Shown piece by piece: positions 78 through 24,251 of a stretch of 24,897 nt of DNA. Source of the stretch: a virus; the UHGV virus genome UHGV-0147584. One strand, written 5' to 3'. Under the pieces are notes generated by a model. It had not been told where the DNA came from, ran no database searches, and was given only the letters and a program-made list of their open reading frames with translations. A program made the position numbers and the translations under genes. How positions within the stretch are numbered: position 1 is the stretch's first letter; each line of letters starts with the position of its first letter.

Positions 78-3000
78 TTAAGAAACAGGAATACCAGTAG
101 TGGCTTTTTTAGTTACCATTACCGTTAAATCACTGATCCATGTGCTAGGCGTCCAGTTATTGATTGCGCTTGATTGCACTTCAAAGGTCAAGGTCACAGC
201 ACCCTTACCCGCTGGCATATCAATAACACCTGAGTAAAGACCAGTATTACCGCCATACGCCCTATTATACAACTCTGACCCATTCTTACGAACAATAAGG
301 CGACAGGTGTCGTAAAACGTATTATTGTTCGACCCTTCACGCGCTCGCAATCCACCAAAACTAACAGCCGGAATAACGATTTGACGATCGAACTTGTGAT
401 CATCTTCAACGCGAACAGTGACCGTACCCTGTGGATAACCAGCATAACCATTATCAACGTTAACATCACGATGCGGGAACTTACGTCCAATCACCTTAAC
501 GAAATCACCCTTAACCTGAGTAGCTTCAAGCATACCCTTAATAACACAGCTAGAGTTAATCGTGACGTTGTTCAGAGTACCAGAATCGGCAGTGATATTA
601 CCTTTAACGGTTGCATTCATGAACGTAGCGGACCCGTTCTTGTTGATATGCCATCCGGTCGATCCGTTCCAGTTGGAAGACTGGATATAGTTACCGATTT
701 TAGCGTTATCAATTGCACCGTTTACGATCTTCGCGTTAGTGATTGCCCCGTCCTGAATCTTCGCGCTGTTAATTGCAGCATTGCCGATTTTAGCCGTGGT
801 AATCGCCGCATCATTAATCTGGGCTGTACCAATTGCAGCATTACGAATCATCGCATTATCGAGATAAACCTTGTTACCTTCGATACCAAACGGGCATACT
901 TCCGATCCGTTCTGTGGAGCTACCGCGATTTTATCAGCATTAAAGATGATTCTCGTCGGTTGCGCCGGATCGTTGGTTGCGCTCATGTGAATACCAGCCA
1001 CGCGACCATCTGCATTAACTGCCAGATTATATTTGCTGTTAATGGTTCCTTTCAAAGCATCGATTTTTACATCTGCTTCCTGATTCACGCCAGCAATCTT
1101 GCCATCCATTTCTACCCGAACTTGATCAATCTTGCTTGCGCTTGCTGCCTCACTGGTAGCAATTGCTTGTTTCAGGGTAGTAGCAGATGCGCTGACTTCG
1201 GATTTAATATCGCCTTTCAGTTCAGCTTTAACCTGATCAATCTTAGTGGAGCTAGCTTGCTCGCTGGTAGCAATCAGACTCTTTAAGGTATTGGCTGAGG
1301 CTTGGACCGTCTGCCCTGTTTCGGTAGTGATTTGCTTATGCATTGCATCAATTTTAGCATCGGCATTAGCGCCAGCTTGAGCAATAGCATCCGCGATAGT
1401 TTCATCTAAGCGGTCTTGTAAACCAATCAGGTCTTCCAGTGCTTCTTTGTCCTGATCGTCCCAGCTAATGGTAGATTTCATTTGCATGAAATACGGTTCA
1501 GACCAAACAGCATCATCCATACCGAAAATATCGTAGTGAGCACCACGGATATAATAATCACCGTCTGCCAAATCAAAGGAAGTATGGCTAACACTATTCG
1601 TGCTTACCGCCCTTGCATCGGAGAAAGTGTTATCGGTTGCATACTGGATGATTGACCCTGCATAGTCATGTTCTACGTCATCCGCCCAGCTAACAAACGC
1701 AGTATTAAAGCCACCACGCGCACTAAAACCTTTCATTGGCTTATGTTGTGGGTTGATAGCCACTAAACGCGCTGGGGCGCTCTCTGAGTTGTTATAGCCC
1801 TTAGCCGATACTTCTACCGTCAGTTGACGCGAAAGGCCGTTAAACTGGTTCATGTCAAGCGTATAAGTCCATGATTCAGGATCGCGGGTACGGTACTGAA
1901 TAGACTTACCAGCCTTGTTAGTCACCTTGATAATGTATGCTTCAAACAGGTCACTAAACTTGTTAGTTTCACCGTTGATCTCAACATCTAATTGTTGCTG
2001 GTTTTCCCATTCGATAATCAGATCATTACCTTCGAAAGTTCCTGGCGTGCTACCCTGATTTTTGATTCGAATAACCGGAGTCGGCAATTCATAGGTAACG
2101 GTAGGATTCTGGTTAACCAGTTCTACCCAATCGGATCGCGCGATGATACCGAAAGCACAAACTCGGTAATCGTAGGAACGATCTTTTGCCAGTGCATTGA
2201 CACTGAAAATTTGCTGTGAAGTCTGTCCCAGCTTAATCCAGTTAGGCGATCCGCTTACACGGTAATCAATCTGGAAACCATAACGGTTAAAATCTTCCGG
2301 TGCATCCCATGTCAAAGTAACGTTTTTACCGTAAATCGTCTCACCAGTTGCCTTAATCCTGAAATTAGTAGGCTTCTGTACTGTCATTGAATCCGGTAAA
2401 CCACTTGGTCGGTTATCTGGGTTAGCCGCATAGTTCAGGTCAGTATAAACCTGAGAATTATATTCTGTGGCGGTGATAGTCATCATCCCAGCAATACCAG
2501 AATCAATCGAGCGATCAATTGCAGTAATACGCCATAAGGAATTATTCAGCTTCAATTCATCATAGGTTACGCTGATAACGTCCCAAACTTCGGCAGTGAA
2601 TGCGTCAGTAGTCATAAAGCTGATAACCTGAGTGATACGAGATTTATTTCGCTCAATGCTCGCGAGTTTATCAATCTGATCTTTAGACTTAACAAAACGA
2701 TATTCTACATCCTTAGCAATAATTCGACCATCTGCGCGAACAGTAGCATCGTTTTCAGCATCAGCCGGATAACGTAGCATTTGCTCTGAATAGTCAATTG
2801 ATGGTTCTTGATACATCGCGTTAATGGTATTGAAATAACCGTTAGTGCCACCTGTTTTCAGTGATACTTTCCCCATCATAATATTGTCTTCATTGAATGT
2901 ATGCTTAACAATATCAGGAGCATCCAGTTTCAGCGTAATACGTCCAAAGGATTCGAACATCACCCCGCCGAAAGTCTGCATAAGATTAGTCAAGTTCTCT

Positions 3001-3854
3001 TTAAAGCTGGCGTTCGGATCACATGCACCGTTTGAATGTAGATCCATCTGGCGTACTTGTTTACGTACTTTCAGGAATGAATCAACGTTGATGTTTTCAA
3101 TTGGTACGGATAAGCCATATTTTTCATTTGTTAGGTAGTGGAAAATCTGATCCACGCCGTTAGTGCTAGCCTCAATAGCATTGGTTTCAAGGTTACGAAT
3201 CTTTAACCCGCAAACGTCTACTGCTACCTGGCTATTTGGCTGGAGAATATCAACCCCAGCAGCAAGAGATTTGTCATCACGACGTAACACAATACACATG
3301 GTCGCAATGCCGTTACCCTTGAAAGCGTCGGTCCAGTCTGAGCCTAAATGACGTTTTGCCAGCGACAAAGCGGTGTTAGGATTCTTGCCCGTGCGGAACT
3401 CGACTTCTAATACTTTACGATATTCTTCTTTAATGTTGCCCTTATCGAGAATACCATCACGGATCGTCATGTTCTTACCAACAAGAACATTTTTGTTATC
3501 GATAAACAGTGCTTTGTAATGGTCGATTTCACCCTCGGCTACAGAGAAGATTTGCACTAGCTTATTGTTTTCTTGCTTAGAAACTGCTTTGTAAACACAG
3601 TTTGTGCCAGTGCGGGTAGTACCGAAAACGACTGGTATCACCGCTTTCGGATCGTTTGATGTTCCTAGTGTCACCGCATTATCTGGGCTTTGTACTTTAG
3701 GTGTTTTTGGTGCGCCTACAGTGGAAGCGATCAAGGTCATTGCACCAGCAGCCATACCGATAGCGACTGCGGTCATAACAGAAAATGTTGCAGCAGCAGC
3801 CATCCCAGCAGACGCACCAGCAATAACCGCGCCTACTAATATTTCAAATCCCAT
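78..3854 (-). CDS. central tail fibre / host specificity protein (lambda gpJ-like)
   Basis: 1258-aa ORF. The C-terminal ~150 aa carry motifs I recognise from the lambda gpJ receptor-binding end (DDHxFDRQIV, VDMPAG.G.V.LTF, VMV.KK). Start ATG overlaps the upstream stop (TAATG). Stop TAA. Confidence 0.85.
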   Translation of the reverse strand: MGFEILVGAVIAGASAGMAAAATFSVMTAVAIGMAAGAMTLIASTVGAPKTPKVQSPDNAVTLGTSNDPKAVIPVVFGTTRTGTNCVYKAVSKQENNKLVQIFSVAEGEIDHYKALFIDNKNVLVGKNMTIRDGILDKGNIKEEYRKVLEVEFRTGKNPNTALSLAKRHLGSDWTDAFKGNGIATMCIVLRRDDKSLAAGVDILQPNSQVAVDVCGLKIRNLETNAIEASTNGVDQIFHYLTNEKYGLSVPIENINVDSFLKVRKQVRQMDLHSNGACDPNASFKENLTNLMQTFGGVMFESFGRITLKLDAPDIVKHTFNEDNIMMGKVSLKTGGTNGYFNTINAMYQEPSIDYSEQMLRYPADAENDATVRADGRIIAKDVEYRFVKSKDQIDKLASIERNKSRITQVISFMTTDAFTAEVWDVISVTYDELKLNNSLWRITAIDRSIDSGIAGMMTITATEYNSQVYTDLNYAANPDNRPSGLPDSMTVQKPTNFRIKATGETIYGKNVTLTWDAPEDFNRYGFQIDYRVSGSPNWIKLGQTSQQIFSVNALAKDRSYDYRVCAFGIIARSDWVELVNQNPTVTYELPTPVIRIKNQGSTPGTFEGNDLIIEWENQQQLDVEINGETNKFSDLFEAYIIKVTNKAGKSIQYRTRDPESWTYTLDMNQFNGLSRQLTVEVSAKGYNNSESAPARLVAINPQHKPMKGFSARGGFNTAFVSWADDVEHDYAGSIIQYATDNTFSDARAVSTNSVSHTSFDLADGDYYIRGAHYDIFGMDDAVWSEPYFMQMKSTISWDDQDKEALEDLIGLQDRLDETIADAIAQAGANADAKIDAMHKQITTETGQTVQASANTLKSLIATSEQASSTKIDQVKAELKGDIKSEVSASATTLKQAIATSEAASASKIDQVRVEMDGKIAGVNQEADVKIDALKGTINSKYNLAVNADGRVAGIHMSATNDPAQPTRIIFNADKIAVAPQNGSEVCPFGIEGNKVYLDNAMIRNAAIGTAQINDAAITTAKIGNAAINSAKIQDGAITNAKIVNGAIDNAKIGNYIQSSNWNGSTGWHINKNGSATFMNATVKGNITADSGTLNNVTINSSCVIKGMLEATQVKGDFVKVIGRKFPHRDVNVDNGYAGYPQGTVTVRVEDDHKFDRQIVIPAVSFGGLRAREGSNNNTFYDTCRLIVRKNGSELYNRAYGGNTGLYSGVIDMPAGKGAVTLTFEVQSSAINNWTPSTWISDLTVMVTKKATTGIPVS
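690..865 (-). repeat. about six tandem 30-bp coding repeats inside the J-like gene
   Basis: Visible 30-nt periodicity (e.g. gtcctgaatcttcgcgctgttaattgcagc / atcattaatctgggctgtaccaattgcagc) encoding a 10-aa repeat NAAINSAKIQ / DGAITNAKIV / NGAIDNAKIG. Confidence 0.7.
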
Positions 3855-4273
3855 TATTCACCCCCGAATCTATAAACTTGTTCATAGTCAATGTCTGAAA
3901 CAGGAATGGTCATCCAGATACCATCTTCTTCAACGAGGCCATAACCGGAATAATGAGGAACTACGGAATAATAATTACGGTTTCCTAATTTGTGGGCTGT
4001 GACCAGTAAGTCGCCGTCCTGTAAATCATCAGTGACTAATTTGAAATGTTTCTTAATTGGTTGAAGGATATTTGAATACCCGCTTAATTCTTTGCAGATT
4101 TTCAAACCTTCTTCTTTAGTTGAATATTTTTTATAAAGAGAATTATATAGGTCAGTACCAGCGAGAATATCGATGATCTTACATGCAATGAGATTGCAAT
4201 CATTCTCGCCTTGAACGAACTCCTGACCTATTAAAGAATTGATGTAATCGGTGATAAGCCTAGTTTTTAGCAT
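3854..4273 (-). CDS. tail-tip protein, NlpC/P60-like (lambda gpK position)
   Basis: ORF-track frame 3854..4429, but its 5-prime part overlaps the upstream gene. An internal ATG at 4271-4273 is preceded by GGAGGT at good spacing. A Cys-containing motif ENDCNLIACKII resembles the NlpC/P60 catalytic region. Stop TAA. Confidence 0.55.
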   Translation of the reverse strand: MLKTRLITDYINSLIGQEFVQGENDCNLIACKIIDILAGTDLYNSLYKKYSTKEEGLKICKELSGYSNILQPIKKHFKLVTDDLQDGDLLVTAHKLGNRNYYSVVPHYSGYGLVEEDGIWMTIPVSDIDYEQVYRFGGE

Positions 4274-4319
4274 GTTGAATACCTCCATGCTGTTATTTAC
4301 TAGGCTTAGGGAGAAGGGA

Positions 4320-4973
4320 TTATTTCTTCGATGAATGCCACTTGCTTTCGCTATTCCACTTCCCGGCACGGGAGAAGAATAGATCGTTCTCGTTTCCAAC
4401 ATAGGATCGGTGGATACCATCGGAGGCATGACTACGGGCGTTTTTATCTAGAACTTCCCAGATACTATTAAGCTGAAATTCTGATTCGTTTTTACACTCA
4501 TCATCTTCATGTTCGATGTTAATCCCGATGGAATCGACTACCCCACGGAAAACAGGGTAAGTGGTTTCAACCTTGCCCGTGTTGGGATTCAGGAAAACCA
4601 TCTCGATTTTCACATCAGATTTATCGAATTGCTTGTTACGAATGAGAGTAATGTATTCTTCGCGAACGTTAGAAACAGTTACGTTGATCCCGTTGTTGTT
4701 GATCTCCTTCTCTTCGGTATTCGATGAGATTTGAAGAAAGTCACCCGTTGCGAGATATGTAAAACCGTTATAGTCCAAATCGAAATACCCATCTGTAAGC
4801 CGTAGAACGTCCCCTGACGCGGTAATCACTTCGATAATGTGAAACATCGATCCAGTGGAAAAAAGTTGCGGTAGAGTCAATCTAGACACATTCTGACCTG
4901 TCTGGTCGTTGTATACCTCGATGAAGTCCAGATTAGTGCATAGTTTGCTGAATGATTCCTGAATAGTTGCCAT
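4320..4973 (-). CDS. minor tail protein (lambda gpL position)
   Basis: 217-aa ORF between the M-like and K-like genes; start ATG overlaps the upstream stop (TAATG). Assignment is by position and size only. Confidence 0.5.
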   Translation of the reverse strand: MATIQESFSKLCTNLDFIEVYNDQTGQNVSRLTLPQLFSTGSMFHIIEVITASGDVLRLTDGYFDLDYNGFTYLATGDFLQISSNTEEKEINNNGINVTVSNVREEYITLIRNKQFDKSDVKIEMVFLNPNTGKVETTYPVFRGVVDSIGINIEHEDDECKNESEFQLNSIWEVLDKNARSHASDGIHRSYVGNENDLFFSRAGKWNSESKWHSSKK

Positions 4974-5533
4974 TATACATTCTCCACTAATTCAAATTTC
5001 ATCTTGCCAATCTGGGCGATCTTCCAATCGATATTTTCAGTTTTGAGAACAAATTCACCTTCTACGTTTTGATACTTGATCACCTCACCCGCCAGGACGT
5101 TCTGACGCAAGTTAGGGAAGAGTTTCATTTCACCACCTGATTTCACGTCTTCGGTGATCGTGTAGATTTTCTTGTGGTTCTCAAACTGGATGATAGTTCC
5201 CGCTTTCAGTGTTCCGGTGAAGTTGGAGAGTCTTACCTTACGCCCACCGCGAGCAGTACCAGCAGCAGCCGTAACCATCTGGCGTACATCACCTGTATAT
5301 TTTGAAAAGTAAGACAGTGGCACACTAAAAGGACGACCAAAAAGGTGACGTGCTACAAATTCTTTTACTTCGTTAATATCCTGAGCCATGAAATTAGCTG
5401 TAAATTCTGCTTCATAAAAATGAATGCCAGTAAAGCGACGCTGGAACTTACCAGAAATAGATTGCGCCTTAAAGAAAGGCTGTTTTGATTTAAGAGTAAA
5501 ATCTGTGATTTTAATATTCTTGGATTTGAACAT
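4973..5533 (-). CDS. minor tail / distal tail protein (gpM position)
   Basis: ORF frame is open to 5569 (GTG). The ATG at 5531-5533 is the only candidate with an SD-like GGGGG 8 nt upstream; alternative starts are ATG 5546-5548 or GTG 5567-5569. Stop TAA. Confidence 0.5.
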   Translation of the reverse strand: MFKSKNIKITDFTLKSKQPFFKAQSISGKFQRRFTGIHFYEAEFTANFMAQDINEVKEFVARHLFGRPFSVPLSYFSKYTGDVRQMVTAAAGTARGGRKVRLSNFTGTLKAGTIIQFENHKKIYTITEDVKSGGEMKLFPNLRQNVLAGEVIKYQNVEGEFVLKTENIDWKIAQIGKMKFELVENV

Positions 5534-5536
5534 AGA

Positions 5537-5582
5537 AAAAGCCCCCATAGTTTTATGATTATTTATCACTATGAGGGCTTTT
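5537..5582 (-). promoter_or_regulatory. long intercistronic hairpin between tape measure and the next gene
   Basis: Arms aaaagcccccatag (5537-5550) and ctatgagggctttt (5569-5582), 13 of 14 bp paired, 18-nt loop. Begins 3 nt after the TMP stop; one arm contains the GGGGG SD candidate of the downstream gene. Confidence 0.55.
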
Positions 5583-5584
5583 AA

Positions 5585-7939
5585 TTACATCTTACGGCGC
5601 TGTGCGTCTTCTACCGCCTGAGCAACTAACTTAGCATGACGTTTGATAGCATCCATAACCATCTTGTCTGAGCTATTAACGTTGCCGTTAATGTTCAAAG
5701 GCGCATTAACTTCAATCGGCTGAGAGTTACCACCGCCTGATTTTTGAGCAGATAAGAAGTCTTTCAAATCACCGTTAGTACGCTGATCAACTACTCGTTC
5801 ACCCTTATCAAGCAACCATGTACCCTCACGAGGGATATTATCGATACCATCATGAGCCATACCGCTAACGTTAGTCGATTTGATGTTTGCGATGTTCCCC
5901 ATGTTCTGAGAAACAGCCAATGCAGCAGCCGCGATTTTTTGACCTGTGGTTACGTTGGTCGGATCGTTCCATGCATCGGTAGCAGCCGTCCACATGTTCA
6001 CCGTCGCTTGTCCAATGGAGAATGCCTTATGAGCATTGAAAGCCATCTGCATAGCCTTTGTGTTTTCCTGCCCGAAGAGAGTCATTGCAGCAGCAAAACC
6101 GCCGTACATATCATCGGCTATTGACTGACGAGCATCAGCGTATTTCTTCTCAATTGCAGCCATCCGTTTTTGATGGTTTTCATTGAGTTTTTCTAATGCT
6201 TCCATCCGTTTAGCCGGAACGGTGATCCCATCAATCTTGAGTTTATCGGTTTTATAATCTTGTTCGGCTTCCGATTTCTCTTTATCGATTGCATTAAATT
6301 TAGCAAACGGATTATTTGAGTCTTGATAATCAAATCCACTGGTTAATTGATTGGATTTAAAACCATCCATTCCCTGTAAATGACTATCAATCTGAGAATA
6401 GTTTTGCTCGGTATCATTCACACGACGCATATATTCTTCGTAGGAGATAGCTTTACCATCAAGTAACCGTTTATGGCTTTCTAGCTCGTTGTCCCTGATT
6501 TGTTGCAAAACTGTTAAGGCATTCAGAGCATCAATCGGATCAGCACCCAACATCATTTTATAGATGTTTTCTGCGTTCTGATCTAACAGTTGCTGACGTT
6601 TAGCGGCTGCGTCTTGCTGAGAGATTAAGCCCATATCTAAAGCAGTGTCTAAATCTTTCAAGCTGGCTTCTAACTGCTTGTTTTGAGAAGCAATAGACGC
6701 GGCTGTCTGTCCTTGCAATTTAACATCAAGAGCATTCAGTCGCTTGATTGCATCCTCGCGTGCTTTCTGTGCTTTTTCTGCGGCTTCCTTAGCCTTTTTA
6801 GCTGCCTCTTCCGCTTTCTTCTTGGCTTCTTCTTGTTCTTTTTTCGATGGTCCGGTGACGCCTCCACCTTGACCCGTTGGGGTAAATCCGGTATCCGATT
6901 TATTTCCAGTGATAGTAATTACCGGATCACCGTTTTTATCACGGGTAACGCCTTCACTATCCACCCAACGATCAGGATAATTTGGTTTATTGTTGAAGCT
7001 GGCTTGTCCACCCGCTAGACCAGTAGAACTATAACCATGCTTGTTAATAAAACCACCGTTAGCCATAGCCATATTCTGGCGAGCTTTTTCAAACCTTTCA
7101 TTAAAAGTCTTTAATGCGTTGAATAAAGCGGTCTTTTCCCAATCTTTATCAAACCAGTTGTAAAGATTATTCATCCCTTCAACAACTGGATTTAGTGCAT
7201 TTGCAGCCATACCCTTTAAGTTATCGGTAAGGGTATCCATATTTTTAGAGAATTTATTATATTCTTCGGCTGTGTCATTGGTGATTTTAACAGTTTGCTG
7301 ATTAATGGCGTTTACAGCTTCCTGATAAGATCCGTATTTCTGCAATTCATCAGCCATATGACTTGAATCACTGGCTAACGATTCCATCATAAACTTAACA
7401 TCAGCGATAGACGCACCAGCCTTGCGCATATCATAGAAGACCTTGATCGCCGCTTTCATCCCGCCTTGTGGATCGTTCATAAACTCGGCATAATCTTTAA
7501 TCTTCAAACCTACACTTTCTAGGTCGTCTTCAATACCGCCACCGTTACGCCATGCATCAGCCAGCTTATCTAAGGTGTCTTTGTTAATATCACCAAATTT
7601 CTCAACGGTTAAGCCAGTACCGGAGAATTGCTTCTCTAATTTCTGGAGTGTTTCGACGGTTAAACCAGTTGCTTTTGAAACTTCGCTGTATTCCTTTACA
7701 TAATCACCGATGGCATTTGCAGCAGAAATAGCGCCAGCAGCCAAACCAACAAAACCACCAGCAGCCAAAGCAAGCGATCCACCAGTTCCGCGAAGGGTTC
7801 CACTTAAACTAGATAAACCACCAGACAAATCAAGATTCATTGCCCTTTCTGAAAGGTTATCAAGCATCTCTATCGCCTGATTGGTACTTCTCCTTAGACC
7901 GTCATTATCTCCTTCTATTGTTACTATATGTCTTGTCAT
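5585..7939 (-). CDS. tail tape measure protein
   Basis: 784-aa ORF directly downstream of the G/GT chaperone pair. Coiled-coil-like Ala/Lys/Glu-rich stretches (KKEQEEAKKKAEEAAKKAKEAAEKAQKARE) and Gly-rich N-terminal hydrophobic segments. Stop TAA. Confidence 0.8.
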   Translation of the reverse strand: MTRHIVTIEGDNDGLRRSTNQAIEMLDNLSERAMNLDLSGGLSSLSGTLRGTGGSLALAAGGFVGLAAGAISAANAIGDYVKEYSEVSKATGLTVETLQKLEKQFSGTGLTVEKFGDINKDTLDKLADAWRNGGGIEDDLESVGLKIKDYAEFMNDPQGGMKAAIKVFYDMRKAGASIADVKFMMESLASDSSHMADELQKYGSYQEAVNAINQQTVKITNDTAEEYNKFSKNMDTLTDNLKGMAANALNPVVEGMNNLYNWFDKDWEKTALFNALKTFNERFEKARQNMAMANGGFINKHGYSSTGLAGGQASFNNKPNYPDRWVDSEGVTRDKNGDPVITITGNKSDTGFTPTGQGGGVTGPSKKEQEEAKKKAEEAAKKAKEAAEKAQKAREDAIKRLNALDVKLQGQTAASIASQNKQLEASLKDLDTALDMGLISQQDAAAKRQQLLDQNAENIYKMMLGADPIDALNALTVLQQIRDNELESHKRLLDGKAISYEEYMRRVNDTEQNYSQIDSHLQGMDGFKSNQLTSGFDYQDSNNPFAKFNAIDKEKSEAEQDYKTDKLKIDGITVPAKRMEALEKLNENHQKRMAAIEKKYADARQSIADDMYGGFAAAMTLFGQENTKAMQMAFNAHKAFSIGQATVNMWTAATDAWNDPTNVTTGQKIAAAALAVSQNMGNIANIKSTNVSGMAHDGIDNIPREGTWLLDKGERVVDQRTNGDLKDFLSAQKSGGGNSQPIEVNAPLNINGNVNSSDKMVMDAIKRHAKLVAQAVEDAQRRKM

Positions 7940-7942
7940 AAA

Positions 7943-8317
7943 TTACCCCAATTGTCCGCTCTTGAGCTTTTGTAATAATGAAGCGTCGAAAAAACTATCA
8001 ACCAAAGCAGCGTTACGTTCTTCCTCTTTCTTACGAGCAATTTCTTTTATTTCTTCTTGCGTTTTAAATTGCTTGTCGTCCTTAATCATTCGGAATTGGT
8101 TAACATTGATTTTATTCAACCATTCACGAGTCATGTTAGGAGATGTAACGTGCATGTAATACATCGACTGTGCATGTCGCGCATCTTGAAACAGGGGGCT
8201 TTGTGGTTCAAGATATGTATCGAATATATGCAACGCCCAAAATAGCGTAATTGGCATATTATCCATCTCATCTTTACTCAAGCCCCGACGCATCATTTGC
8301 CGAAAATAAAAATTCAA
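7943..8317 (-). CDS. T-like portion of the tail assembly chaperone GT fusion (reached by -1 frameshift from G)
   Basis: This frame has no ATG start (ORF track begins at TTG) and is open upstream to 8341, overlapping the 3-prime end of the G-like ORF in the -1 frame; immediately precedes the tape measure gene. Confidence 0.6.
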   Translation of the reverse strand: MNFYFRQMMRRGLSKDEMDNMPITLFWALHIFDTYLEPQSPLFQDARHAQSMYYMHVTSPNMTREWLNKINVNQFRMIKDDKQFKTQEEIKEIARKKEEERNAALVDSFFDASLLQKLKSGQLG

Positions 8318-8325
8318 GAGCGGGT

Positions 8326-8634
8326 TTACTTTACCTCGTTTTCAATTACCGCCGCATCTTTCATCAATGATGCTTGAGCAACTAAGCCGATTAATTCGCT
8401 GCGGACGCTAGTATACAATGCCTTAACTTGTTCAATAGATTCAAATACTGGCTTACCGTCTTCATCTTCAATACAACGAAGAATAGAGCGTTCATCACGG
8501 TCTTTTTTATCGGTATTGAAAACATGTTCATTAAATTCTTGTACCGACATAGGGCGAGCATAGAACGTAAATCCGCCGAGGGTTAAAGATTCACGTTTCG
8601 GAGAAAGAGCTTTTAACATTTCATTCAGATTCAT
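8326..8634 (-). CDS. tail assembly chaperone (lambda gpG-like)
   Basis: 102-aa acidic protein directly upstream of the T-like frame and tape measure; classic G-T-TMP arrangement. Stop TAA. Confidence 0.65.
   Translation of the reverse strand: MNLNEMLKALSPKRESLTLGGFTFYARPMSVQEFNEHVFNTDKKDRDERSILRCIEDEDGKPVFESIEQVKALYTSVRSELIGLVAQASLMKDAAVIENEVK
8329..8335 (-). other. candidate -1 slippery heptamer GGUAAAG for G to GT frameshifting
   Basis: mRNA reads G GUA AAG UAA at the last two codons of G. The -1 frame (GGU AAA GUA...) is the open T frame. Lambda uses G GGA AAG at the equivalent place (recalled). Confidence 0.45.
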
Positions 8635-8676
8635 TCTTGTTTCCTCTTAAGTTAATTAGATATGTTTATTTAGAAT

Positions 8677-9183
8677 TTAAGAGATTTTCAAAGTCTGCTT
8701 AGTGCCAGTCTTCTTAATGTTATTGAGGAAAGCTGCCGGAGGATTGCTTAACCAATAGTAATGAAAACCACTTTGCATACTGTTATAAGGAACAGTGACA
8801 GCAGCACCACCCAAATTAACGGTTATATTCCCCGCTCTACCGTTCTGGAGATATACAGCCATAGTAGGAGTACCACCATTGAATTGACCAACGATAACGC
8901 CAATCAGACGGCCTACGCCCACGTTTTCGGGGTTCTCCATAGTTCCTTTACTGCGCATATCAGTTACAGGATAGTTTGAAGCAGTTACACCCCAATTATT
9001 ACCCAATGACGTAGACCACGCAGCAGTAGCTACAACCGTATCCATACCACGACCAGCCATTGCCGACATATTACGCGGAGCCGGAACTTTTAAAGCTGTT
9101 AATGCTTCTTTCATCCATCGCTTACCCGTCACTGATACAGCCGATGACCCGATCCAGCCGGGAACTTTAACGACATTTGCCAT
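8677..9183 (-). CDS. hypothetical virion-associated protein (Gly/Ala/Thr-rich)
   Basis: 168-aa ORF, ATG 9181-9183 preceded by GGAG; sits between a terminator and the G chaperone gene. No family recognised. Confidence 0.45.
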   Translation of the reverse strand: MANVVKVPGWIGSSAVSVTGKRWMKEALTALKVPAPRNMSAMAGRGMDTVVATAAWSTSLGNNWGVTASNYPVTDMRSKGTMENPENVGVGRLIGVIVGQFNGGTPTMAVYLQNGRAGNITVNLGGAAVTVPYNSMQSGFHYYWLSNPPAAFLNNIKKTGTKQTLKIS

Positions 9184-9198
9184 TTTGATTACTCCAAT

Positions 9199-9226
9199 AA
9201 AAAAGCCCCACCATTAAGGCAGGGCT
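9199..9226 (-). terminator. intrinsic terminator after the 158-aa gene and its extension
   Basis: Minus-strand RNA: GC-rich hairpin GCCCUGCC..GGUGGGGC followed by UUUUUU. Nearly identical to the terminator at 15123-15150. Confidence 0.7.
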
Positions 9227-9231
9227 TATAA

Positions 9232-9357
9232 TTAATCTTTAGCCTTGCGGCTTCGTTTAGCTGTGGCTTTCGCCGTAACTTCTTCTACTTCTGGAATCAC
9301 TACCGCTTCATGTTCCGGCTGTGGTTCAGGTTCCGGTAAAGGAAGTTCTTCGTTAGT
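9232..9357 (-). other. in-frame 41-codon extension behind the UGA stop of the 158-aa gene (candidate readthrough segment)
   Basis: Hand translation from 9357 down, in frame with the upstream ORF: TNEELPLPEPEPQPEHEAVVIPEVEEVTAKATAKRSRKAKD, then TAA at 9232-9234. Confidence 0.5.
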
Positions 9358-9834
9358 TCATCCGGCAGTGTTGAAGATTTCCTGTTTCAGCGGAGCACCA
9401 TCAACAGCAAAGGTAAATTCTTTAGTTACCACTTCTTCATCGCCACCGTTCATAGCAACTTTAGAAATAAAGCCGTTGAAAGCGGTGCGAATACCAGTCT
9501 GTTTTGCTGCGTCAACATAGTATTCAATTTTAATCTGAATACGGGTTCCATCTTCGGCAGCCTTAATAAGACGCTCATGCACGGTATCCCCGGGAATATA
9601 ATTAACGGTCAGAGTCAGATCAGGAACGTTCAGTTTACCTACCAGCTTGCGGTTATACTGAGAAGAGAAGGATTTAACTTCTACAGTACCGCGCTCGATA
9701 CCAGTTTCAGGGAAACCAGCACACTCTTTAATTTCTTCATAGCTTTCATGATCGAGAGCGGTGTTAGTGGTATCGGCGTGATAGAACATACTTACCAGAC
9801 CACCAGTAAAAATATCTTTGAATTGTTGAGACAT
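9358..9834 (-). CDS. putative tail tube-fold protein (candidate major tail protein)
   Basis: 158-aa ORF with SD AAGGGG. A segment (GKLNVPDLTLTVNYIPGD...LIKAAEDGT...IEY) is paralogous to the 277-aa protein at 13552-14385. Ends in TGA followed by an in-frame extension and terminator. Confidence 0.5.
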   Translation of the reverse strand: MSQQFKDIFTGGLVSMFYHADTTNTALDHESYEEIKECAGFPETGIERGTVEVKSFSSQYNRKLVGKLNVPDLTLTVNYIPGDTVHERLIKAAEDGTRIQIKIEYYVDAAKQTGIRTAFNGFISKVAMNGGDEEVVTKEFTFAVDGAPLKQEIFNTAG

Positions 9835-9864
9835 ATAATTACCCCTTAATTAAATTTGTTATAA

Positions 9865-9883
9865 CGGGGGAACTAGTCCCCCG
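9865..9883 (-). promoter_or_regulatory. GC hairpin between the fibre gene and the 158-aa gene
   Basis: cgggggA-acuag-Uccccg, 7-bp stem; on the minus strand it follows the fibre stop and precedes the SD of the next gene. Possible weak terminator or mRNA-stability element. Confidence 0.5.
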
Positions 9884-9890
9884 ACTTTTA

Positions 9891-12800
9891 TTATTTAGTT
9901 GCTTTCAGTTCGGCAATCTCTTTATGTAATGCTTCGATCTGCGCTTTATATTTGGCGTCCATTTCCTGCATAGCTTTGATGATTAAAGCATTGACAGCAG
10001 AGTTAGAAATAGTCTTGATTGCTTCTGGATGTTCTGGATCTTCGGTAGATTGAATACCTACTGCTTCCGGCAATACTTTTTCCAGATCCTGAGCAATAAT
10101 ACCTACTTCGCGTTTAATTACCGTGTCATCAGAAAGAGATTTAACTTTATCGTAGGTGTATACTTTCAGGGAGTTTACTTTCTCTAATGCACCGTCCTGT
10201 AATTCTTCCTTGTTAATTTTCAGACGAGAGTCAGAGCGAATGTAAACATCGTTAAAGCTACCGTTACGACCTGCCGTCATGTCACCGGATGCGTTAAAGT
10301 CAAAGACGGCATCATGAACATGGAGACGAACAAGAGCGTTACCGATAGTACCGCTAGGAACGTGTACACCCATTGCGGCGATATGATATTTACCTTGATG
10401 GGTTGCTTTCCAGATGTTATGAGCGGAATCGGTTGATTGCTGGCAGTCGACCTGAATACCGGAAGCACGATCACGCCAGCTAGCCCAACTACCACCAGCA
10501 ACGCTACCACGAATAAGACCATTACCGCCACCGGATACAGTGCCCGTTTCAAGGTGAATCATCTTACCGCCGAATTTCCAGACTTCGGCTTGTTTCTCAC
10601 CGCGCATACGCATAACACCAGCATCATCGCAGTACAACAGACCCAACTCTAAGCCGTTTGGATCTCTAAACCATAAATGCTTGTTACCAGTGCGCTTAAA
10701 CTCAATATCAGCACCATTCAGGGTGATATTGCCTCCAGTGTGGATTGCTTTAGGCTTAACAGTACCGTTAATAGCAAACTCGATTAATTCAGTACCAGGA
10801 CCGCCAGCACGTTGGGTATACCAGTGCCAACCGCTTTCATCAGCACATTCAAACACTTGTTTACGAGCATCAGCGCCCCATGCACGAATATTAAACGTAG
10901 AAGTTGCAGTACCTTTACCCCAGCGAATTTGTCCAGCAGCTTCTAAATCACCGAAGAATTTAGTTTTAATCGCACCAGTTGCTAAAGTACGTTCAGTGGT
11001 GAAGTGTGCACCTTTGCTATCGTCAAGCTGTAAGATATTATCACGAGCGTTATTGCTATCGCCCCAATGGTTAAACCGGAAGTAGTCGCGAGAATTTAAT
11101 CGACCAGCATCAAAGGTTAACATTCCTTTACCGACGTAAATATCACCAGCAAATCGAGCAGCACGGCTATCTCGTTCGAGAACTAATGCACCCTCGTTAC
11201 CATCACCACCTAAAGTAACTTTACCAGTCGTCAAATCGTAAATGAATGGTCGGTTGCCGTTCCAGCCACCAAATTTATCATTTTCGGCAGTTGAAAGAAG
11301 ATAAACTTTACCACCATCATTACGCCAGAATGCACCGTAGTTACCGTAAATCATACGGAATGCATCACTGTTAGCAGCTACATATTGTCCGTTTGAGTAA
11401 ACAATTTTTGTTTTACCAGTGGATAATGAAACTTGACCGTTCTCATCCAGTCTTACAGAGTTATTACCTTCCGTTAATTCATTTACTAACTGTACAGTGT
11501 TAGTAGTACCATCACCATAACCTAGATAACCCTGACGACGATTAGCACCAGAACGATAATCAAAGAATTCGATATAGTTACTTTGCCCGTCGCGGCGTTC
11601 CATTCTAATAGCGTTATTACCCTTAACAAAAAGGCGGTTTACAGTAACACCATTAAAATCAATTTTTAATTGATCCGCTGTATCAGTAACACCAGTAGCT
11701 AAACGATAGACACTACCTTCAACAACTTCATGCCAAATTGTTTCGGCTGATTTGCTACGGAATTTACGAAGATATTTTTTATTTGTATCAGTTGAGTTAT
11801 TCAGACTGATAATATCATATGTTCCTTGACCGTTATTATCGAACATCAACGTTCCGGCTTTGTTTTCGGTGTTGAACATCGTAATAACACGAGCATCAGT
11901 AACACCAACAGAAGGTTTAACGAGAGTTAATTCAGGAACATCATGTACTGTTAACGAAACATCACTAGTTTTACCATATTCGACAATAACGTTATCGGTA
12001 TAACGACCGTAGTTTACGTAAATGTCGTAGTTATCACCGGAAGTATTAACCGCAAATACTTGATGGACATTCAAAGAATTTCGACGATAAGCAGCAATAC
12101 TAACGCCTTTCGGGTTATTGTTACCGGAACGGATAACAATTTCTACAAAATCAACCTGATCATAGGAGTTAACGTTATAGCCGTTACCACCGAAGATACG
12201 AAGCATTACCATTCGACCATTCTGTGGGATCGTGGCGGTTGCAATCTTGAAGTATCCACGAGAAGCATCACCAGACGGAACAGACATTTTCACGTTCTTG
12301 ATGAACATCTGGTCAACTGCGGCCTTGCTATACACACCCAATTCATCAGGAGTCGGCTTATCACCTTCATGGTACATGCGATAGCTGAATCTCTTGTTAC
12401 CGTCCTTATCAAAGCCATAGGTTTTAACCTGAGATGAGCTAGACCCATAATGGAACTCAAAGCCGCGACCGTGTGCTTTACCGCCAGAATGAGGAATGTT
12501 AAGGATTAAGTTACCCCAGCCTTCGGCATTGTTCGGACGAAACGCACCAAAATAATCAAGGTTACGAGCACCAGCATCATCAAAATAGTTAGCGGTCTTG
12601 CTTAACAGATAGCCATGATGATAAGTGTTGGTATTCTTCTTGATGTAAAGAGCATCGTTGCTACCTTCAATACCATCAATTCGACGGTTAGCGGCTGCAA
12701 TCGCTGCATCTGCATCGGTCTTGTTTTTGTCTACCTTCGCGTTAATGGCGGTATGATTGCTATTAACAGTGTTGGTTAAGTTGGTGATCTTCGTATCAGC

Positions 12801-13478: not shown

Positions 13479-13506
13479 CTAATCACCTCACATAAAACAG
13501 GAATAA

Positions 13507-13524
13507 GGGAGGCGTTAACCTCCC
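13507..13524 (-). terminator. hairpin with U-rich tail between the 277-aa gene and the fibre gene
   Basis: GGGAGG-uuaacg-CCUCCC followed on the minus strand by UUAUUCCUGUUUUAUG, then the fibre SD GAGGTGA. Confidence 0.5.
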
Positions 13525-13551
13525 CGCGTCATGTTTTATTTAGAGAAGTGA

Positions 13552-14394: not shown

Positions 14395-14796
14395 TTAAAA
14401 ACGCGCTAGATAAGAAAATTTAAGGCTAAGTGTCCCAACGATACCCCCATCACTAGAATCATCGTCATAATCGGTATTAGAAGCGACTGGAGTTATATCT
14501 GAAATGGAGAAGCCCAAATCTTTAAAACGTGGGTTATCTGGCTGAATCTGGATTATCTGGCAAATACCCTCATGAATTTTGGTTTCATGAATCTGAGAAT
14601 ATAATTGCATTTCGATAACGCATTCAGCTTGCATTGCATTACCACCACGGACCCTAGTGTAAGTCTCATTCATTCCGGTAATCCAACACACCACGTCATC
14701 GCTAAAACCAGTTTGAGTTTGTTCTACGTTTAAAGCCAGACCTAGATCTTGTTCGATAATATCCTGTAAAGCACGTTTAATCTTAAGACGTGGCAT
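14395..14796 (-). CDS. neck / tail-completion protein (hypothetical)
   Basis: ORF frame extends to 14823, but the ATG at 14794-14796 lies 4 nt after the upstream stop (coupled start). Position corresponds to lambda Z/U. Confidence 0.45.
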   Translation of the reverse strand: MPRLKIKRALQDIIEQDLGLALNVEQTQTGFSDDVVCWITGMNETYTRVRGGNAMQAECVIEMQLYSQIHETKIHEGICQIIQIQPDNPRFKDLGFSISDITPVASNTDYDDDSSDGGIVGTLSLKFSYLARF

Positions 14797-15091: not shown

Positions 15092-15122
15092 AGTTACCCC
15101 CTTTTATGGAGTATTTACATAC

Positions 15123-15150
15123 AAAAAAGCCCCACCGTTAGGCAGGGCTA
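15123..15150 (-). terminator. intrinsic terminator after the capsid gene and its extension
   Basis: Minus-strand RNA: AGCCCUGCCUAACGGUGGGGC hairpin followed by UUUUUUGUAUGU. Confidence 0.7.
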
Positions 15151-15154
15151 ATTA

Positions 15155-15241
15155 TTATTTTGCTTTCGGTGGACGTCCCACCTTTTTAGCTGTGGCTTTC
15201 GCCGTAACTACCGGAATTTCTTCCGGCAATTCTTCGTTATT
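15155..15241 (-). other. in-frame 28-codon extension behind the UGA stop of the capsid gene (candidate readthrough segment)
   Basis: Hand translation from 15241 down, same frame as the capsid ORF: NNEELPEEIPVVTAKATAKKVGRPPKAK, then TAA at 15155-15157. Confidence 0.5.
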
Positions 15242-17242
15242 TCATTCAGCGGAGATGTGAAGAACTTTCAGAGCTTCCGGCTGTGCTACAACGTAGTCCA
15301 AATCTACAAAGATACGAGGCACTACCGCACCACGATCCCTATATGTAGTTAGATCCATGTCGAGTTCCAGACCTCCCCACTCACCGATAGTAATACCGGA
15401 GAAGTCACCCAGAACGATGTGGTCTGCCGGGATAACGCCAGAAGTAACTACTTCGTAACCAGCCAGTTTGCCGTTTTCGATGATATAACCGGAAACGCCG
15501 TTATCTTTCAGGGTAGATTCCAGTTCAGCAGCAGTTGCACCGCTCATCGCAAACTTGATCGCCTGAGCAGGAACGCCAGCGTCGGTCAGTGCTGCAATTT
15601 CTTTCAGGAAGTCTTTGTAAGAGAAAGCAGCTTTCTTGGTAACGCGGCTAGCGTCTACCAGTTGCTTAACCAGACCAGCCGGACCACGGTCGTTAGCTTT
15701 ATCAGACAGAATCAGTTGTTCCAGTTTGATGCGAACAGCTTTGTTAATGTGATCAGTGATCAGGGAAGCGATGCCGGGTACGGTTTTCAGCGACTGACGG
15801 CTGATCGGGTTGCCACCAGCAAAAGTTTTCGGAGACAGTTTCACGTTCGCAAATTCAGCTTTGCTTTCCGGTGCAGCACCGTTTTCATCAACGAAGCCGA
15901 AAGCGTCAACGCTGGATTTAGTCATTTTTGGAATAGCGGTCGGGGAGTTCAAGCCACTGTAAACAGTCACACCCAGACGACCCAGAACAGATTCCGGCAT
16001 CAGCATTTCGATGTAGGATTCAGTCATCAGTTTTTCGTCAGTGATAGCGGTCAGGTCGGCTTTGGTGTTACCAGCAGAAGCAGCACGCATAGCAGCAGCC
16101 GGAACGAATACAGAGCCACCGCGAGCAGCACGACCACGCTGCATTGCAGCACCAGCAGCCATAGCGGAATATTCAGCTTCGTTAGCACCCAGAGCAGCAC
16201 CATCTACCAGAGAGCGAATTACGTTGTTCAGGTCAAAAGTTTTTTCCATTTTAGAGTCCTTAATTTGTTCGTTATTACGTTGAGCATTGACGAGATTATT
16301 TAGTGCCTTAGTGCGGAATGCTTCCGGCGTCATGTCTTTAATTGCCAATGCGCGTTTCAATTCTTCGTCGTCAATATTTAGTTCCCGCGCGATTGCTCGG
16401 ATTTCTTCTTCGTCTTCTTCGGAACGTTCAGCCACTTCTTCGGTTTTTTCTTCTTCAACCGGAGCGGCTTCACGTTCTTCTTTTACTTCTTCTTCCCGAA
16501 CAGTTGAACTATCATCATCAACACTTTCAGGATGTTTAGCGTCTTTTCCGTCTTCGAGATTTTCATCTTCTTTATTCTCTTCAACTTGGCGCTCTTGAGT
16601 TTCTTCAACTTTCGGTTCTTTATTTTCTTCTACCGGAGTTTCTTCAACCTGAGCGGGTTCTTGTTCTTCTTTGATTTCTTCGATTTGTTCTTTAGTCATA
16701 TCGCGTTTAGCCCCCAAATTAACTGTGATAGTATTTAGAGAGCGATTTAAACCGACCGAATCATCGGCAGGGACCGTGACCCACGAAATTTCGTGAGGAA
16801 TCCATTTAGAAACAATGAGTTGCGATTTAGCGTAGTCGATGTGATATTCTTTAATGTCATAACCGACAGAAATTTTTTCCATCGTACCTTCAATGACTTT
16901 ATTACGAATATCATTAGCCAAAGTCCCATGCTTAGAGAATTTAACCAGAGCACGGCCTACGTTATCCGCATCGATTCGAGCGTTACAAACGACACCAATG
17001 TGATTATCGAAATTATGATTGAACAGCAACGGAGCGTTATTATTCAGACGAGACAGATCAACCGCTTCCGGTGTATGTACCAGAATTTCATCTAATACCA
17101 CCATTTCTTGATTTTGCTCATCCCAAAATTGGCGCTGATAAGGCTGTGTACTTGAGAAAGCAATTTCAAACTCGTATTGATCGTTATGCCCTTCGTTAAT
17201 AACTCCACCGTAACCGTTAAGATCGCGGCGAAATTTAAGCAT
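15242..17242 (-). CDS. prohead protease - acidic scaffold - major capsid protein (HK97 fold) encoded as one ORF
   Basis: 666 aa. N-terminal ~180 aa carry HK97-family prohead protease signatures (LLFNHNFDNHIG; KISVGY...HEISWVTVPADDSVG). Residues ~180-330 are an extremely acidic low-complexity linker. The C-terminal ~330 aa look like an HK97-fold capsid protein. SD AAGGTGA. Stop TGA. Confidence 0.75.
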   Translation of the reverse strand: MLKFRRDLNGYGGVINEGHNDQYEFEIAFSSTQPYQRQFWDEQNQEMVVLDEILVHTPEAVDLSRLNNNAPLLFNHNFDNHIGVVCNARIDADNVGRALVKFSKHGTLANDIRNKVIEGTMEKISVGYDIKEYHIDYAKSQLIVSKWIPHEISWVTVPADDSVGLNRSLNTITVNLGAKRDMTKEQIEEIKEEQEPAQVEETPVEENKEPKVEETQERQVEENKEDENLEDGKDAKHPESVDDDSSTVREEEVKEEREAAPVEEEKTEEVAERSEEDEEEIRAIARELNIDDEELKRALAIKDMTPEAFRTKALNNLVNAQRNNEQIKDSKMEKTFDLNNVIRSLVDGAALGANEAEYSAMAAGAAMQRGRAARGGSVFVPAAAMRAASAGNTKADLTAITDEKLMTESYIEMLMPESVLGRLGVTVYSGLNSPTAIPKMTKSSVDAFGFVDENGAAPESKAEFANVKLSPKTFAGGNPISRQSLKTVPGIASLITDHINKAVRIKLEQLILSDKANDRGPAGLVKQLVDASRVTKKAAFSYKDFLKEIAALTDAGVPAQAIKFAMSGATAAELESTLKDNGVSGYIIENGKLAGYEVVTSGVIPADHIVLGDFSGITIGEWGGLELDMDLTTYRDRGAVVPRIFVDLDYVVAQPEALKVLHISAE

Positions 17243-21972: not shown

Positions 21973-22007
21973 TATTGAGAAATCACTATTGTTTGGAGGA
22001 AACTACT

Positions 22008-22235
22008 ATGACTACTAAAGCTACTCGCGGTCGCCCTGCCCGTTTTAACGCTGAACAGATGGCTGATATTGCCTACGCTTACTATACAGCGGATCGTGGT
22101 AAGGAAGCGAAAGAACAGATTCTTAGTGAACATGGGATCTCAATCGCCCAATTCTATAAGAATATGAAGAAGTTAGACATTAAATTCTATGTTCAGATCG
22201 GTGATGGTCAGATCGTAGAAGCAACAGGTTTTTGA
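22008..22235 (+). CDS. small DNA-binding protein (RGRP motif plus HTH-like C-terminus)
   Basis: ATG 22008 is preceded by GGAGGA at 7 nt (the ORF track begins at an upstream TTG). Sequence MTTKATRGRPARF...HGISIAQFYKNMKKLDIKF. Stop TGA. Confidence 0.5.
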   Translation: MTTKATRGRPARFNAEQMADIAYAYYTADRGKEAKEQILSEHGISIAQFYKNMKKLDIKFYVQIGDGQIVEATGF

Positions 22236-22250
22236 GTTTTGATTCTCTTT

Positions 22251-22420: not shown

Positions 22421-22428
22421 AAAAATTA

Positions 22429-23256: not shown

Positions 23257-23299
23257 AGTATTAATTCCCCTTAAACGGTTTAATGATTTGGTCCTCCTA

Positions 23300-23321
23300 G
23301 TTCCGGCAGCATCACCGGAAC
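23300..23321. promoter_or_regulatory. intergenic hairpin between the 110-aa gene and the Rha gene
   Basis: GTTCCGG-cagcatca-CCGGAAC, 7-bp stem. A T-rich run follows on the plus strand only, so orientation and role are ambiguous. Confidence 0.4.
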
Positions 23322-23345
23322 AATTTTATTTATAATAGAAATTTA

Positions 23346-23678: not shown

Positions 23679-23798
23679 GTTACATCCTCTTTACAAATCT
23701 AGGTCAAATAGGTTCAAAATTGTCAAGTGCAATAATCATAAAAAAGTCAGAAAATTTTGTCAACACCCCTTGACAAGACGCCAAAGGGTTGACCTAAC
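23679..23798. promoter_or_regulatory. promoter/operator region with repeated TTGACA-like hexamers and a 20-bp palindrome
   Basis: TTGTCAA at 23720-23726 and 23757-23763, TTGACAA at 23770-23776, TTGACC at 23789-23794. TTGTCAAcaccccTTGACAA is a perfect 7-bp inverted repeat with 6-bp spacer. Lies between the 150-aa and 110-aa genes. Confidence 0.5.
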
Positions 23799-24251
23799 TT
23801 ACAGCATATCTAAGCCTTCATCGTAACCGTAGAAGCCATTCTGAGAAGAGAAACAGATTGGCGCGTAGTCGTCGTCATCTTCGTCTTGTTCATCTCGTTC
23901 TGGGGCTTCCTGAGCGGGTTGTTTACCATAATCAGCCATAATCTGGTCAAGATCGGCGATCCCATAGTAAGAGCCTAAATCAACGTCATATTCACGAACA
24001 TCAAACGGCAGGTCATCACGAACAATAATTGCCGGAATGTTGTTGTATTGTTCACGACCTTCATCAGTAAAGCAGTCTACGATCACCGTAGGGCGACCAT
24101 TACGTTTAAGAGCATAGAAAGCAGTTGAGAAATTGGAGTCTTCGGAATGACGAATGATGTTATAACCACGATTAGCGAAAACATGCATCATAGCCAGATT
24201 ATCATCATGGTTCAGACCCAGAAGAATGAAAGGAGTTTTAGTATTGATCAT
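23799..24251 (-). CDS. hypothetical protein with strongly acidic C-terminal tail
   Basis: 150-aa ORF, SD AGAGGA. Alternating hydrophobic strands (FILLGL, YNIIRH, TVIVDCF, AIIVRD) suggest an alpha/beta fold; C-terminal ERDEQDEDDDDY. No family recognised. Confidence 0.5.
   Translation of the reverse strand: MINTKTPFILLGLNHDDNLAMMHVFANRGYNIIRHSEDSNFSTAFYALKRNGRPTVIVDCFTDEGREQYNNIPAIIVRDDLPFDVREYDVDLGSYYGIADLDQIMADYGKQPAQEAPERDEQDEDDDDYAPICFSSQNGFYGYDEGLDML

Follow-up and report, generated by a model that had tools for sequence, protein, structure and literature searches.

The question raised by this stretch of viral DNA, UHGV-0147584 (24,897 nucleotides (nt), hereafter the window), is whether two of its structural genes, for the major capsid precursor and for the major tail (tube) protein, always end where their annotated stop codons are placed. 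A first-pass annotation of the window had reported that both end in TGA and are followed by an in-frame open reading frame (ORF), and both of these ORFs were found here. No stop codon of E. coli is leakier than UGA, and genes expressed at a high level normally end in UAA in preference to UGA (PMC4989110), so a UGA fixed in a capsid gene is unexpected. Stop codons were traced among relatives at 45 loci (13 RefSeq genomes, 31 IMG/VR contigs and the window itself), and the comparison makes it fairly probable, in our judgement, that UGA-A readthrough is programmed at the capsid gene and, in the allele group to which the window belongs, at the tube gene, with the extension being translated and used.

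Open frames behind the capsid and tube stop codons

The capsid gene (positions 15242..17242, minus strand, as are all features below unless stated) encodes a protein of 666 amino acids in which a prohead protease, an acidic scaffold-like linker and an HK97-type capsid domain are joined, with matches to Pfam Peptidase_S78 and Phage_capsid and to PHROG 617 (major head protein, E 2.6e-91). Its TGA (15244..15242) is followed by A and by a frame-0 extension of 28 codons, NNEELPEEIPVVTAKATAKKVGRPPKAK (15158..15241), which is closed by tandem TAA TAA (15157..15152), and 2 nt past these stops lies an intrinsic terminator, AGCCCTGCC-TAAC-GGTGGGGCT with a T run (15123..15149). TGA-A with an in-frame ORF was found at 50 of 50 family loci, comprising the first 45 and 5 further distinct ones, 4 of which belong to a second lineage with a C-terminal domain only 39% identical. 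Across the family the extension varies between 27 and 44 codons (26 unique DNA variants in seven length classes of 87-141 nt, all multiples of three) and always runs to the same homologous TAA, usually TAA TAA, with 2-5 nt between its end and the terminator, which is nearly invariant in the 45 loci. The terminator, together with the stretch from it to the ribosome-binding site of the following gene (15092..15151), is almost invariant in these loci, and the extension directly upstream is the most variable stretch of its region; it looks like a local diversity hot-spot, generated by recombination or diversifying selection.

The tube gene (9358..9834; 158 amino acids) is placed upstream of the tail assembly chaperone and tape-measure genes. 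Its product matches PHROG 158 (major tail protein, E 9.5e-21) and, weakly and just under the cut-offs, Pfam Phage_TTP_11/12, which points to a lambda-like major tail protein. The TGA (9360..9358) is again followed by A and by a frame-0 extension, here of 41 codons, TNEELPLPEPEPQPEHEAVVIPEVEEVTAKATAKRSRKAKD (9235..9357), ending at TAA (9234..9232) with a second TAA at 9228..9226, and by an intrinsic terminator (9199..9226) near-identical to the one after the capsid gene. The capsid and tube extensions of the window are homologous and have an identical 24-nt stretch, the conserved core, in common. This tube cassette, homologous to that of the capsid gene, was present at 21 loci, all with TGA-A (13 unique variants of 114-129 nt, multiples of three), and a diverged tube allele at 18 loci (58-72% amino acid identity) ended in TAA-T directly before the terminator, without an extension, the TGA and the extension going together at the tube gene.

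Frame 0 was open, and frames 1 and 2 closed, in all 39 unique extension variants (26 capsid and 13 tube). At least 7 insertion or deletion events (indels) had taken place within the extensions, 7 of 7 being multiples of three, a length shown by none of the 4 indels in the non-coding sequence next to them (Fisher p=0.003), and the few indels downstream of the capsid extension, in the terminator loop and spacer, were of 1-2 nt. Over at least 100 substitutions no in-frame stop had appeared, an outcome with a neutral chance of 0.012, and the extension-bearing stop itself was never replaced by TAA, TAG or a sense codon (50 of 50 capsid and 21 of 21 tube loci). The 24-nt core was found in 56 copies in IMG/VR, all of them in this family and behind the C-terminus of a capsid or tube protein; reading upstream in frame, TGAA was the first stop in 56 of 56. 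No extension fused through a sense codon was found in the top 120 protein clusters or among 5.8 billion annotated proteins, where the only match was a 33 amino acid spurious ORF call in the same frame with a TTG start; searching the extension peptides by tblastn against 50,697 phage records gave no match. A sequencing artefact was rejected, since more than 50 independent assemblies share the arrangement, and a frameshift origin was rejected for the window and family, as the extension lies in frame 0 with the other frames closed.

The composition of the encoded peptide is also shared between copies. The Pro-Glu repeat of the tube extension uses varied synonymous proline codons (CCG, CCT, CCA), and NEELP and IP are common to the capsid and tube copies of the window across synonymous differences. 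The tips of the tails differ in sequence and are all basic (KKVGRPPKAK, KKQRKTKE, KKERKTKAK, KRSRKAKD, KRGRKAKN, KRGRKPKE), the first of these giving a sub-threshold Pfam AT_hook match (E 0.04-0.09). An immunoglobulin (Ig)-like domain (BIG2, I-set or FN3, of about 80-100 amino acids) was rejected for the tail, which has 27-44 amino acids and gave the sub-threshold AT_hook match only.

Capsids of sister lineages (40-48% identity) end in TAA and show two forms of tail after a conserved ...DDRLFL(H/Y)EK. The first (L081-L083, L085, L094) has a short Ala/Lys/Glu/Pro tail fused in frame, for example GTPAEVKAALKASA, GTPAEAPAEAKAGK or GEAEAGETRKAK, each followed by a stop. In the second (L086, L087, L084, L080 and L014, phage DCP80) the gene stops early and an ORF in the -1 frame, encoding a similar tail, reaches to just before the terminator, its product ending in ...TDTGAQAAPVRKPRALKVTK in L086, ...TGEQASPAKVKKPRALKVK in L084 and ...KAKAKAETAE in L087. 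Slippery heptamers lie at the EKK codons (A_AAA_AAG in L086, A_AAA_AAA in L087), and the capsid protein is probably extended here by a -1 frameshift that annotation has missed. From these sequences a C-terminal tail on all or some capsid subunits appears to recur in the wider capsid family by different decoding routes, in line with what has been described for extensions made by frameshifting (PMC5009743).

The first-pass annotation had set the two genes within a strong genome-wide skew to TAA, with TGA reserved for a few abundant structural genes. Its count of 18 TAA, 4 TGA and 0 TAG was reproduced exactly (the TGA-ending genes being 9358..9834, 13552..14385 and 15242..17242 on the minus strand and 21975..22235 on the plus strand), and its details for each TGA gene were right. 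E. coli genes end in roughly 64% TAA, 29% TGA and 7% TAG, and the window does not depart from this (chi-square p=0.17; P(TAA>=18)=0.06); the skew is ordinary for E. coli and without significance. Nor is TGA reserved: the totals over the 45 loci were 490 TAA, 152 TGA and 5 TAG, and TAA and TGA switch among relatives at the 124 amino acid gene (21 TAA, 17 TGA), the 277 amino acid gene (20 TAA, 20 TGA, 2 TAG) and the 275 amino acid gene (19 TAA, 12 TGA), as well as at the genes for the 1195 amino acid fibre and a 110 amino acid protein. TGA is thus in part common and scattered among genes, the pattern which the annotation had said would tell against it. The extension-bearing capsid and tube stops differ from the others in the next base, +4 being A at 66 of 66 of them compared to 0 of the 86 other TGA stops at these loci, a comparison which, like the count of 50 in 50, is drawn from kin-related loci and is not phylogenetically independent.

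The remaining two TGA genes of the window have ordinary stops. The 277 amino acid tail-protein paralogue (13552..14385) matches PHROG 158, as does the tube protein, over its N-terminal half (154 amino acids) and has a C-terminal part of about 120 amino acids besides; its TGA is followed in the window by three codons and TAA, and among relatives the next stop comes 0-8 codons on, with no conserved downstream ORF. The small plus-strand gene (21975..22235; 86 amino acids, no Pfam or PHROG match) ended in TGA at 31 of 31 loci with G or T at +4, and no maintained ORF was found 3' of it, the sequence there varying in length and content among relatives and crossing a terminator. The suggestion that leaky UGA is used on purpose for low-level C-terminal extension is therefore favoured by comparative evidence for the capsid and tube genes and falls away for the other two. 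On these matches the element appears to encode a pair of tube-like paralogues, of which the 277 amino acid protein has its extra domain constitutively and the 158 amino acid protein has the candidate readthrough tail.

Readthrough weighed against other readings

From the anatomy and conservation of the cassette we infer that most ribosomes would be released at the UGA by release factor 2 (RF2), giving capsid or tube protein of normal length, while a minority would decode it with a near-cognate tRNA, most likely Trp-tRNA(CCA), in competition with RF2, and would continue in frame for 28 codons (capsid) or 41 (tube) to the TAA or tandem TAA before the intrinsic terminator. An A 3' of UGA was reportedly linked to suppression by normal tRNA-Trp by Engelberg-Kulka in 1981. 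Insertion of Trp would give the junction VLHISAE-W-NNEELPEEIPVVTAK in the capsid protein and ...EIFNTAG-W-TNEELPLPEPEPQPEHEAVVIPEVEEVTAK in the tube protein. In the minor isoform the tail would be flexible, with an acidic spacer rich in proline, the conserved core V(T/K)AKAT(A/V)K and a short basic tip like an AT-hook. By analogy with display on T7 10B, with the exterior C-terminus of HK97-fold shells and with lambda-like tube proteins, this tail should lie on the outer surface of the head and tail, where it may give weak electrostatic adhesion to anionic polymers or DNA, a function that we offer as a low-confidence guess. Because a ribosome stopped at the TAA of the extension would cover the 5' arm of the terminator, readthrough could also be coupled to transcription of the genes downstream. 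For comparison, a reporter in E. coli K-12 gave 2-4% UGA readthrough (PMC10570021).

The RNA following the capsid UGA is structured. A hairpin of 11 base pairs with a GAAA loop (15206..15231) starts 10 nt past the UGA within the extension, with a minimum free energy (MFE) z of -5.9 against shuffles, and capsid copies in general fold better than shuffled sequence (z -2.7 to -5.9). The MFE stem started exactly 10 nt past the UGA and ended at the GUU codon before the conserved core in 36 of the 39 unique variants, with closing stems of different sequence (AAUUGCCGGAA/UUCCGGUAGUU, AACC.UCUG/CAGA.GGUU, AACUUC/GAAGUU, AACAGCC/GGUUGUU). Within the 24-nt core itself (codons for TAKAT) lies a mini hairpin, GGC-GAAA-GCC (15194..15203), which reads GGCGAAAGCC in 63 of 66 copies; the only variants, GGAGAAATCC (both sides changed, in one capsid and one tube copy) and GGTGAAAGCC (a G.U pair), keep the pairing. 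Readthrough may be stimulated by the stem-loop 10 nt past the UGA, in the way known for 3' stem-loops of some eukaryotic viruses, or the structure could instead serve RNA stability or termination. We know of no 3' stem-loop established as a readthrough stimulator for bacterial ribosomes.

Several points weigh against readthrough, the kinship of the loci being one. The case for it is wholly comparative, and the codon-position variability and the ratio of nonsynonymous to synonymous differences (pN/pS) did not show the clear purifying selection expected of a coding extension: pN/pS was 0.74 in the capsid extension compared to 0.25 in the gene body, and 0.46 compared to 0.15 for the tube gene, which indicates weak amino acid constraint, and substitution patterns alone do not prove that the extension is coding. 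The both-sided change in the mini hairpin (GGA...TCC) costs two amino acid changes, and such a compensatory change shows constraint at the RNA level on the GGC-GAAA-GCC hairpin, so that part of the conservation of the extension is not driven by protein. The structural evidence is itself uneven, as the tube copies fold weakly (z -0.8 to -3.0) and variants with a shuffled interior also form the closing stem in 14-38% of cases, because the first three pairs of the stem are fixed; the closing-stem evidence is therefore rated as moderate, and that for the tube copy as weak. The strongest counter-argument is efficient termination at UGAA. With a non-K-12 variant of RF2, UGAA "signals rapid termination" and the readthrough products of nudL and pheL are undetectable (PMC5373646); the natural hosts probably have a non-K-12 RF2, so that without stimulation by the context the leakage at this UGA may be very low. 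Two ways out of this objection can be seen: readthrough may be enhanced by its local context or by structure, or very little of it may be enough, since 0.3% would give about 1 tailed subunit per capsid on the assumption of about 415 subunits (T=7). Divergence within the extensions (pS 0.17-0.21, pN 0.10-0.13) is below the pS of neighbouring genes (0.29-0.31), and selection seems to act on openness, composition and the core motif over exact sequence, as expected of a disordered linker.

Some of the same observations would fit a segment from UGA to terminator that acts as an untranslated 3' RNA module, for mRNA stability, termination control or processing, in which the open frame is incidental. 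The significant structure of the capsid-copy RNA, the hairpin double change made at the cost of two amino acids, the weak constraint on the peptide and the presence of the same module and terminator 3' of two different abundant-protein genes all favour such a module. However, it gives no reason for indels in multiples of three, for frame 0 alone being open in 39 of 39 variants, for 3-periodic Pro-Glu codon repeats with synonymous variation or for in-frame tandem stops, and it leaves unexplained both the constant TGA-A here, where TAA dominates elsewhere, and the similar tail of the sister lineages, whether fused in frame or encoded in the -1 frame past a slippery heptamer. Rfam searches at gathering and permissive thresholds gave only terminator-driven noise and no family match. 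We regard an RNA module without translation as unlikely.

Decay of a longer ancestral C-terminus, cut by a fixed nonsense mutation and with the downstream sequence drifting, is decidedly improbable given that the same arrangement is present in two genes, that at least 100 substitutions and at least 7 indels have left all 39 unique variants free of frameshifts and in-frame stops, that the stop never becomes TAA or TAG and +4 stays A, and that the extension has diverged less than neighbouring genes have at synonymous sites. The near-neutral pN/pS of the capsid extension (0.74), the constitutive in-frame tail of some sister-lineage capsids and the partly degraded look of the element in some hosts, with insertion sequence (IS) insertions, are what could be said for such a remnant.

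Other kinds of recoding at the UGA are very improbable. Selenocysteine could be considered because E. coli has the machinery for it and the hairpin starts about 10 nt past the UGA. A bacterial selenocysteine insertion sequence (SECIS) has the form of a SelB-binding hairpin with a bulged U and a specific loop, placed about 11 nt past the UGA; the hairpins here presumably lack these SelB-binding features, their loops vary (GAAA, or multi-branched in the long form) with no constant SECIS-like loop, and Rfam gave no match. A stop hop, in which peptidyl-tRNA(Glu) would land on the GAA four codons on, might be read into most capsid copies, where GAA or GAG stands last before the stop and a conserved GAA follows 12 nt on, but a matching landing codon is absent from every tube copy (GGA, GCT, GGT, TCT) and from those capsid copies that end in GAC, and hops of this kind are known from synthetic constructs with no natural case (PMC5009743). 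It is scarcely credible that reassignment of TGA, or a suppressor tRNA of the phage that decodes it, makes capsid and tube proteins always take the long form, and here we agree with the first-pass annotation that whole-genome reassignment is unlikely, since other genes of the family end at TGA, some interchangeably with TAA and without a conserved downstream ORF, the host is E. coli with its standard code, no tRNA is annotated in the element of strain 14EC007 described below, and the one tRNA called by ARAGORN in the window, a tRNA-Gln(TTG) antisense within a coding gene, is no suppressor and probably false.

Programmed readthrough, then, is the reading that we prefer for both genes. A wider version of it, in which a modular cassette (UGA-A, 10-nt spacer, stem-loop, acidic-to-basic tail ORF, tandem stops and terminator) would tail a fixed minority of both capsid and tube subunits and would have moved between genes, related lineages using -1 frameshifting or fusion, seems to us evenly balanced between being right and wrong.

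The element, its hosts and its neighbouring genes

Nearly all genes of the window lie on the minus strand and make up a phage morphogenesis module. In the order of transcription these are the terminase, a 165 amino acid connector-like gene, the portal, the 666 amino acid protease-scaffold-capsid fusion and two small head-completion genes, then the 277 amino acid tail-protein paralogue, a gp37-like fibre of 1195 amino acids, the 158 amino acid tube protein and a gp38-like adhesin, and finally the tail assembly chaperone pair, a tape-measure protein of 784 amino acids and the distal tail and tip proteins. A prophage-like element with 90-93% DNA identity to the window was found in 55 of 5,426 complete E. 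coli genomes. In strain 14EC007 (NZ_CP024131, L001) it adjoins ghrA, a truncated ycdX and a tRNA-Ser gene; as annotated there it is about 28 kb long (681..28580 of L001), flanked by an IS1 copy and the truncated ycdX, and no integrase, lysis or replication genes are annotated in it, so it may be a defective prophage or another kind of particle-producing element. Its tail-tip genes (DUF2163, DUF6950 and a tail tip domain) resemble those of gene-transfer-agent-type tails.

The element is absent among deposited phage genomes, as a megablast of the region against the phage collection matched only the tail-fibre gene (RB49-like gp37). GTDB representative genomes scanned with the tube protein gave no relatives, and those scanned with the capsid alignment gave two only, at 28% identity and uninformative. 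The terminase-portal-protease/capsid-tail module of this siphovirus-like family opens one record (1..13786 of Escherichia phage DCP80, PQ671644.1, L014) that is classified as a 141-kb T-even-like phage (Straboviridae), and this record may be a chimeric assembly.

The tube gene is flanked by a gp37-like long tail fibre gene (about 80% nt identity to RB49-like T-even phages) and a gp38-like adhesin gene (together within 8677..13478). The fibre region is highly mosaic in the window and its relatives (L002-L005, L011-L013), with S74 peptidase or pyocin-knob fibres and a head-spike fibre domain, and its variants also include GIY-YIG and NUMOD3 homing-endonuclease genes and IS2 and IS5 insertions. 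In the chaperone pair (7943..8634) the 102 amino acid gene ends ...GUA AAG UAA, and the -1 frame holds an ORF of 124 amino acids that is open from shortly before that point (KRGKVNPLL...). The pair is annotated in RefSeq as two separate hypothetical proteins; from its sequence it looks like a lambda G/GT-type -1 frameshift, in which slippage at A_AAG beside the stop would fuse both ORFs. The tRNA-Gln(TTG) call of ARAGORN is of 91 nt (14540..14630, plus strand) and lies within a 142 amino acid gene.

Comparison with known systems and significance

A close likeness is the A1 protein of the RNA phage Qbeta (Allolevivirus), where UGA ends the coat gene and an in-frame extension gives a minor, C-terminally extended coat protein, as is proposed here. 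In E. coli the leaky UGA of Qbeta is decoded by the tRNA-Trp of the host at a level of a few percent, and the product becomes part of the virion. Qbeta is a single-stranded RNA phage with an unrelated coat fold, whereas the present element is a tailed double-stranded DNA (dsDNA) prophage with an HK97-type capsid; the Qbeta extension is a folded domain of about 195 amino acids needed for infectivity, whereas here it would be a low-complexity tail of 27-44 amino acids; and here the same cassette lies also 3' of the tail-tube gene.

The same logic and targets are seen in the T7/T3 capsid proteins 10A/10B, in the Listeria phages A118, A500 and PSA (cps and tsh) and in Lactobacillus phage A2. In these frameshift-derived systems recoding at the end of the gene gives a C-terminal extension to a fixed minor share of the major capsid protein and, in the Listeria phages, to such a share of the major tail protein too (PMC5009743). 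They work by -1 or +1 frameshifting at slippery or proline codons, many adding an Ig-like domain, whereas the present extension lies in frame 0 behind a UGA and is far too short for such a domain; it is the sister lineage of L086 and L087 that resembles the -1 frameshift type.

Readthrough stimulated by a 3' stem-loop about 8-10 nt downstream is reported from alphaviruses and others (PMC3159437). There, as here, a UGA is followed by a short spacer and an extended stem-loop enclosing a variable region, but those systems are eukaryotic, and the structural evidence here is moderate. In E. coli itself, nudL and pheL provide a likeness in that near-cognate decoding of UGA gives extended proteins, which look like by-products of the weak K-12 RF2 and are gone with the RF2 of other strains (PMC5373646). 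Unlike these, the cassette has a conserved and maintained downstream ORF, which argues for use over error.

Programmed readthrough is regarded as rare in bacteria (PMC5373646). In the literature that could be searched, mostly outside subscription journals, there was no earlier report of UGA readthrough in the capsid or tube genes of tailed dsDNA phages, and annotation of the extension was absent from all records examined. If the proposal is true, this would be, as far as we could find, the first case in which the structural genes of a tailed dsDNA phage use programmed stop-codon readthrough, and possibly a case in bacteria of readthrough stimulated by structure, and PGAP and RefSeq annotation would be missing a virion component in hundreds of E. 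coli genomes. It would also provide bacteria with a known natural readthrough signal that is easy to engineer and that allows the +4 A, the 10-nt spacer and the stem-loop each to be tested for its role, and this matters because wild-type RF2 terminates well at UGAA.

Almost all the recoding known at the 3' ends of capsid and tail genes in phages is frameshifting, and if UGA-A readthrough is used by this family then the Qbeta principle would extend to tailed phages. The wider capsid family offers a natural three-way comparison, in which one tail would be added by readthrough, by -1 frameshift or by constitutive fusion, and which bears on why only part of the subunits of a particle might be decorated.

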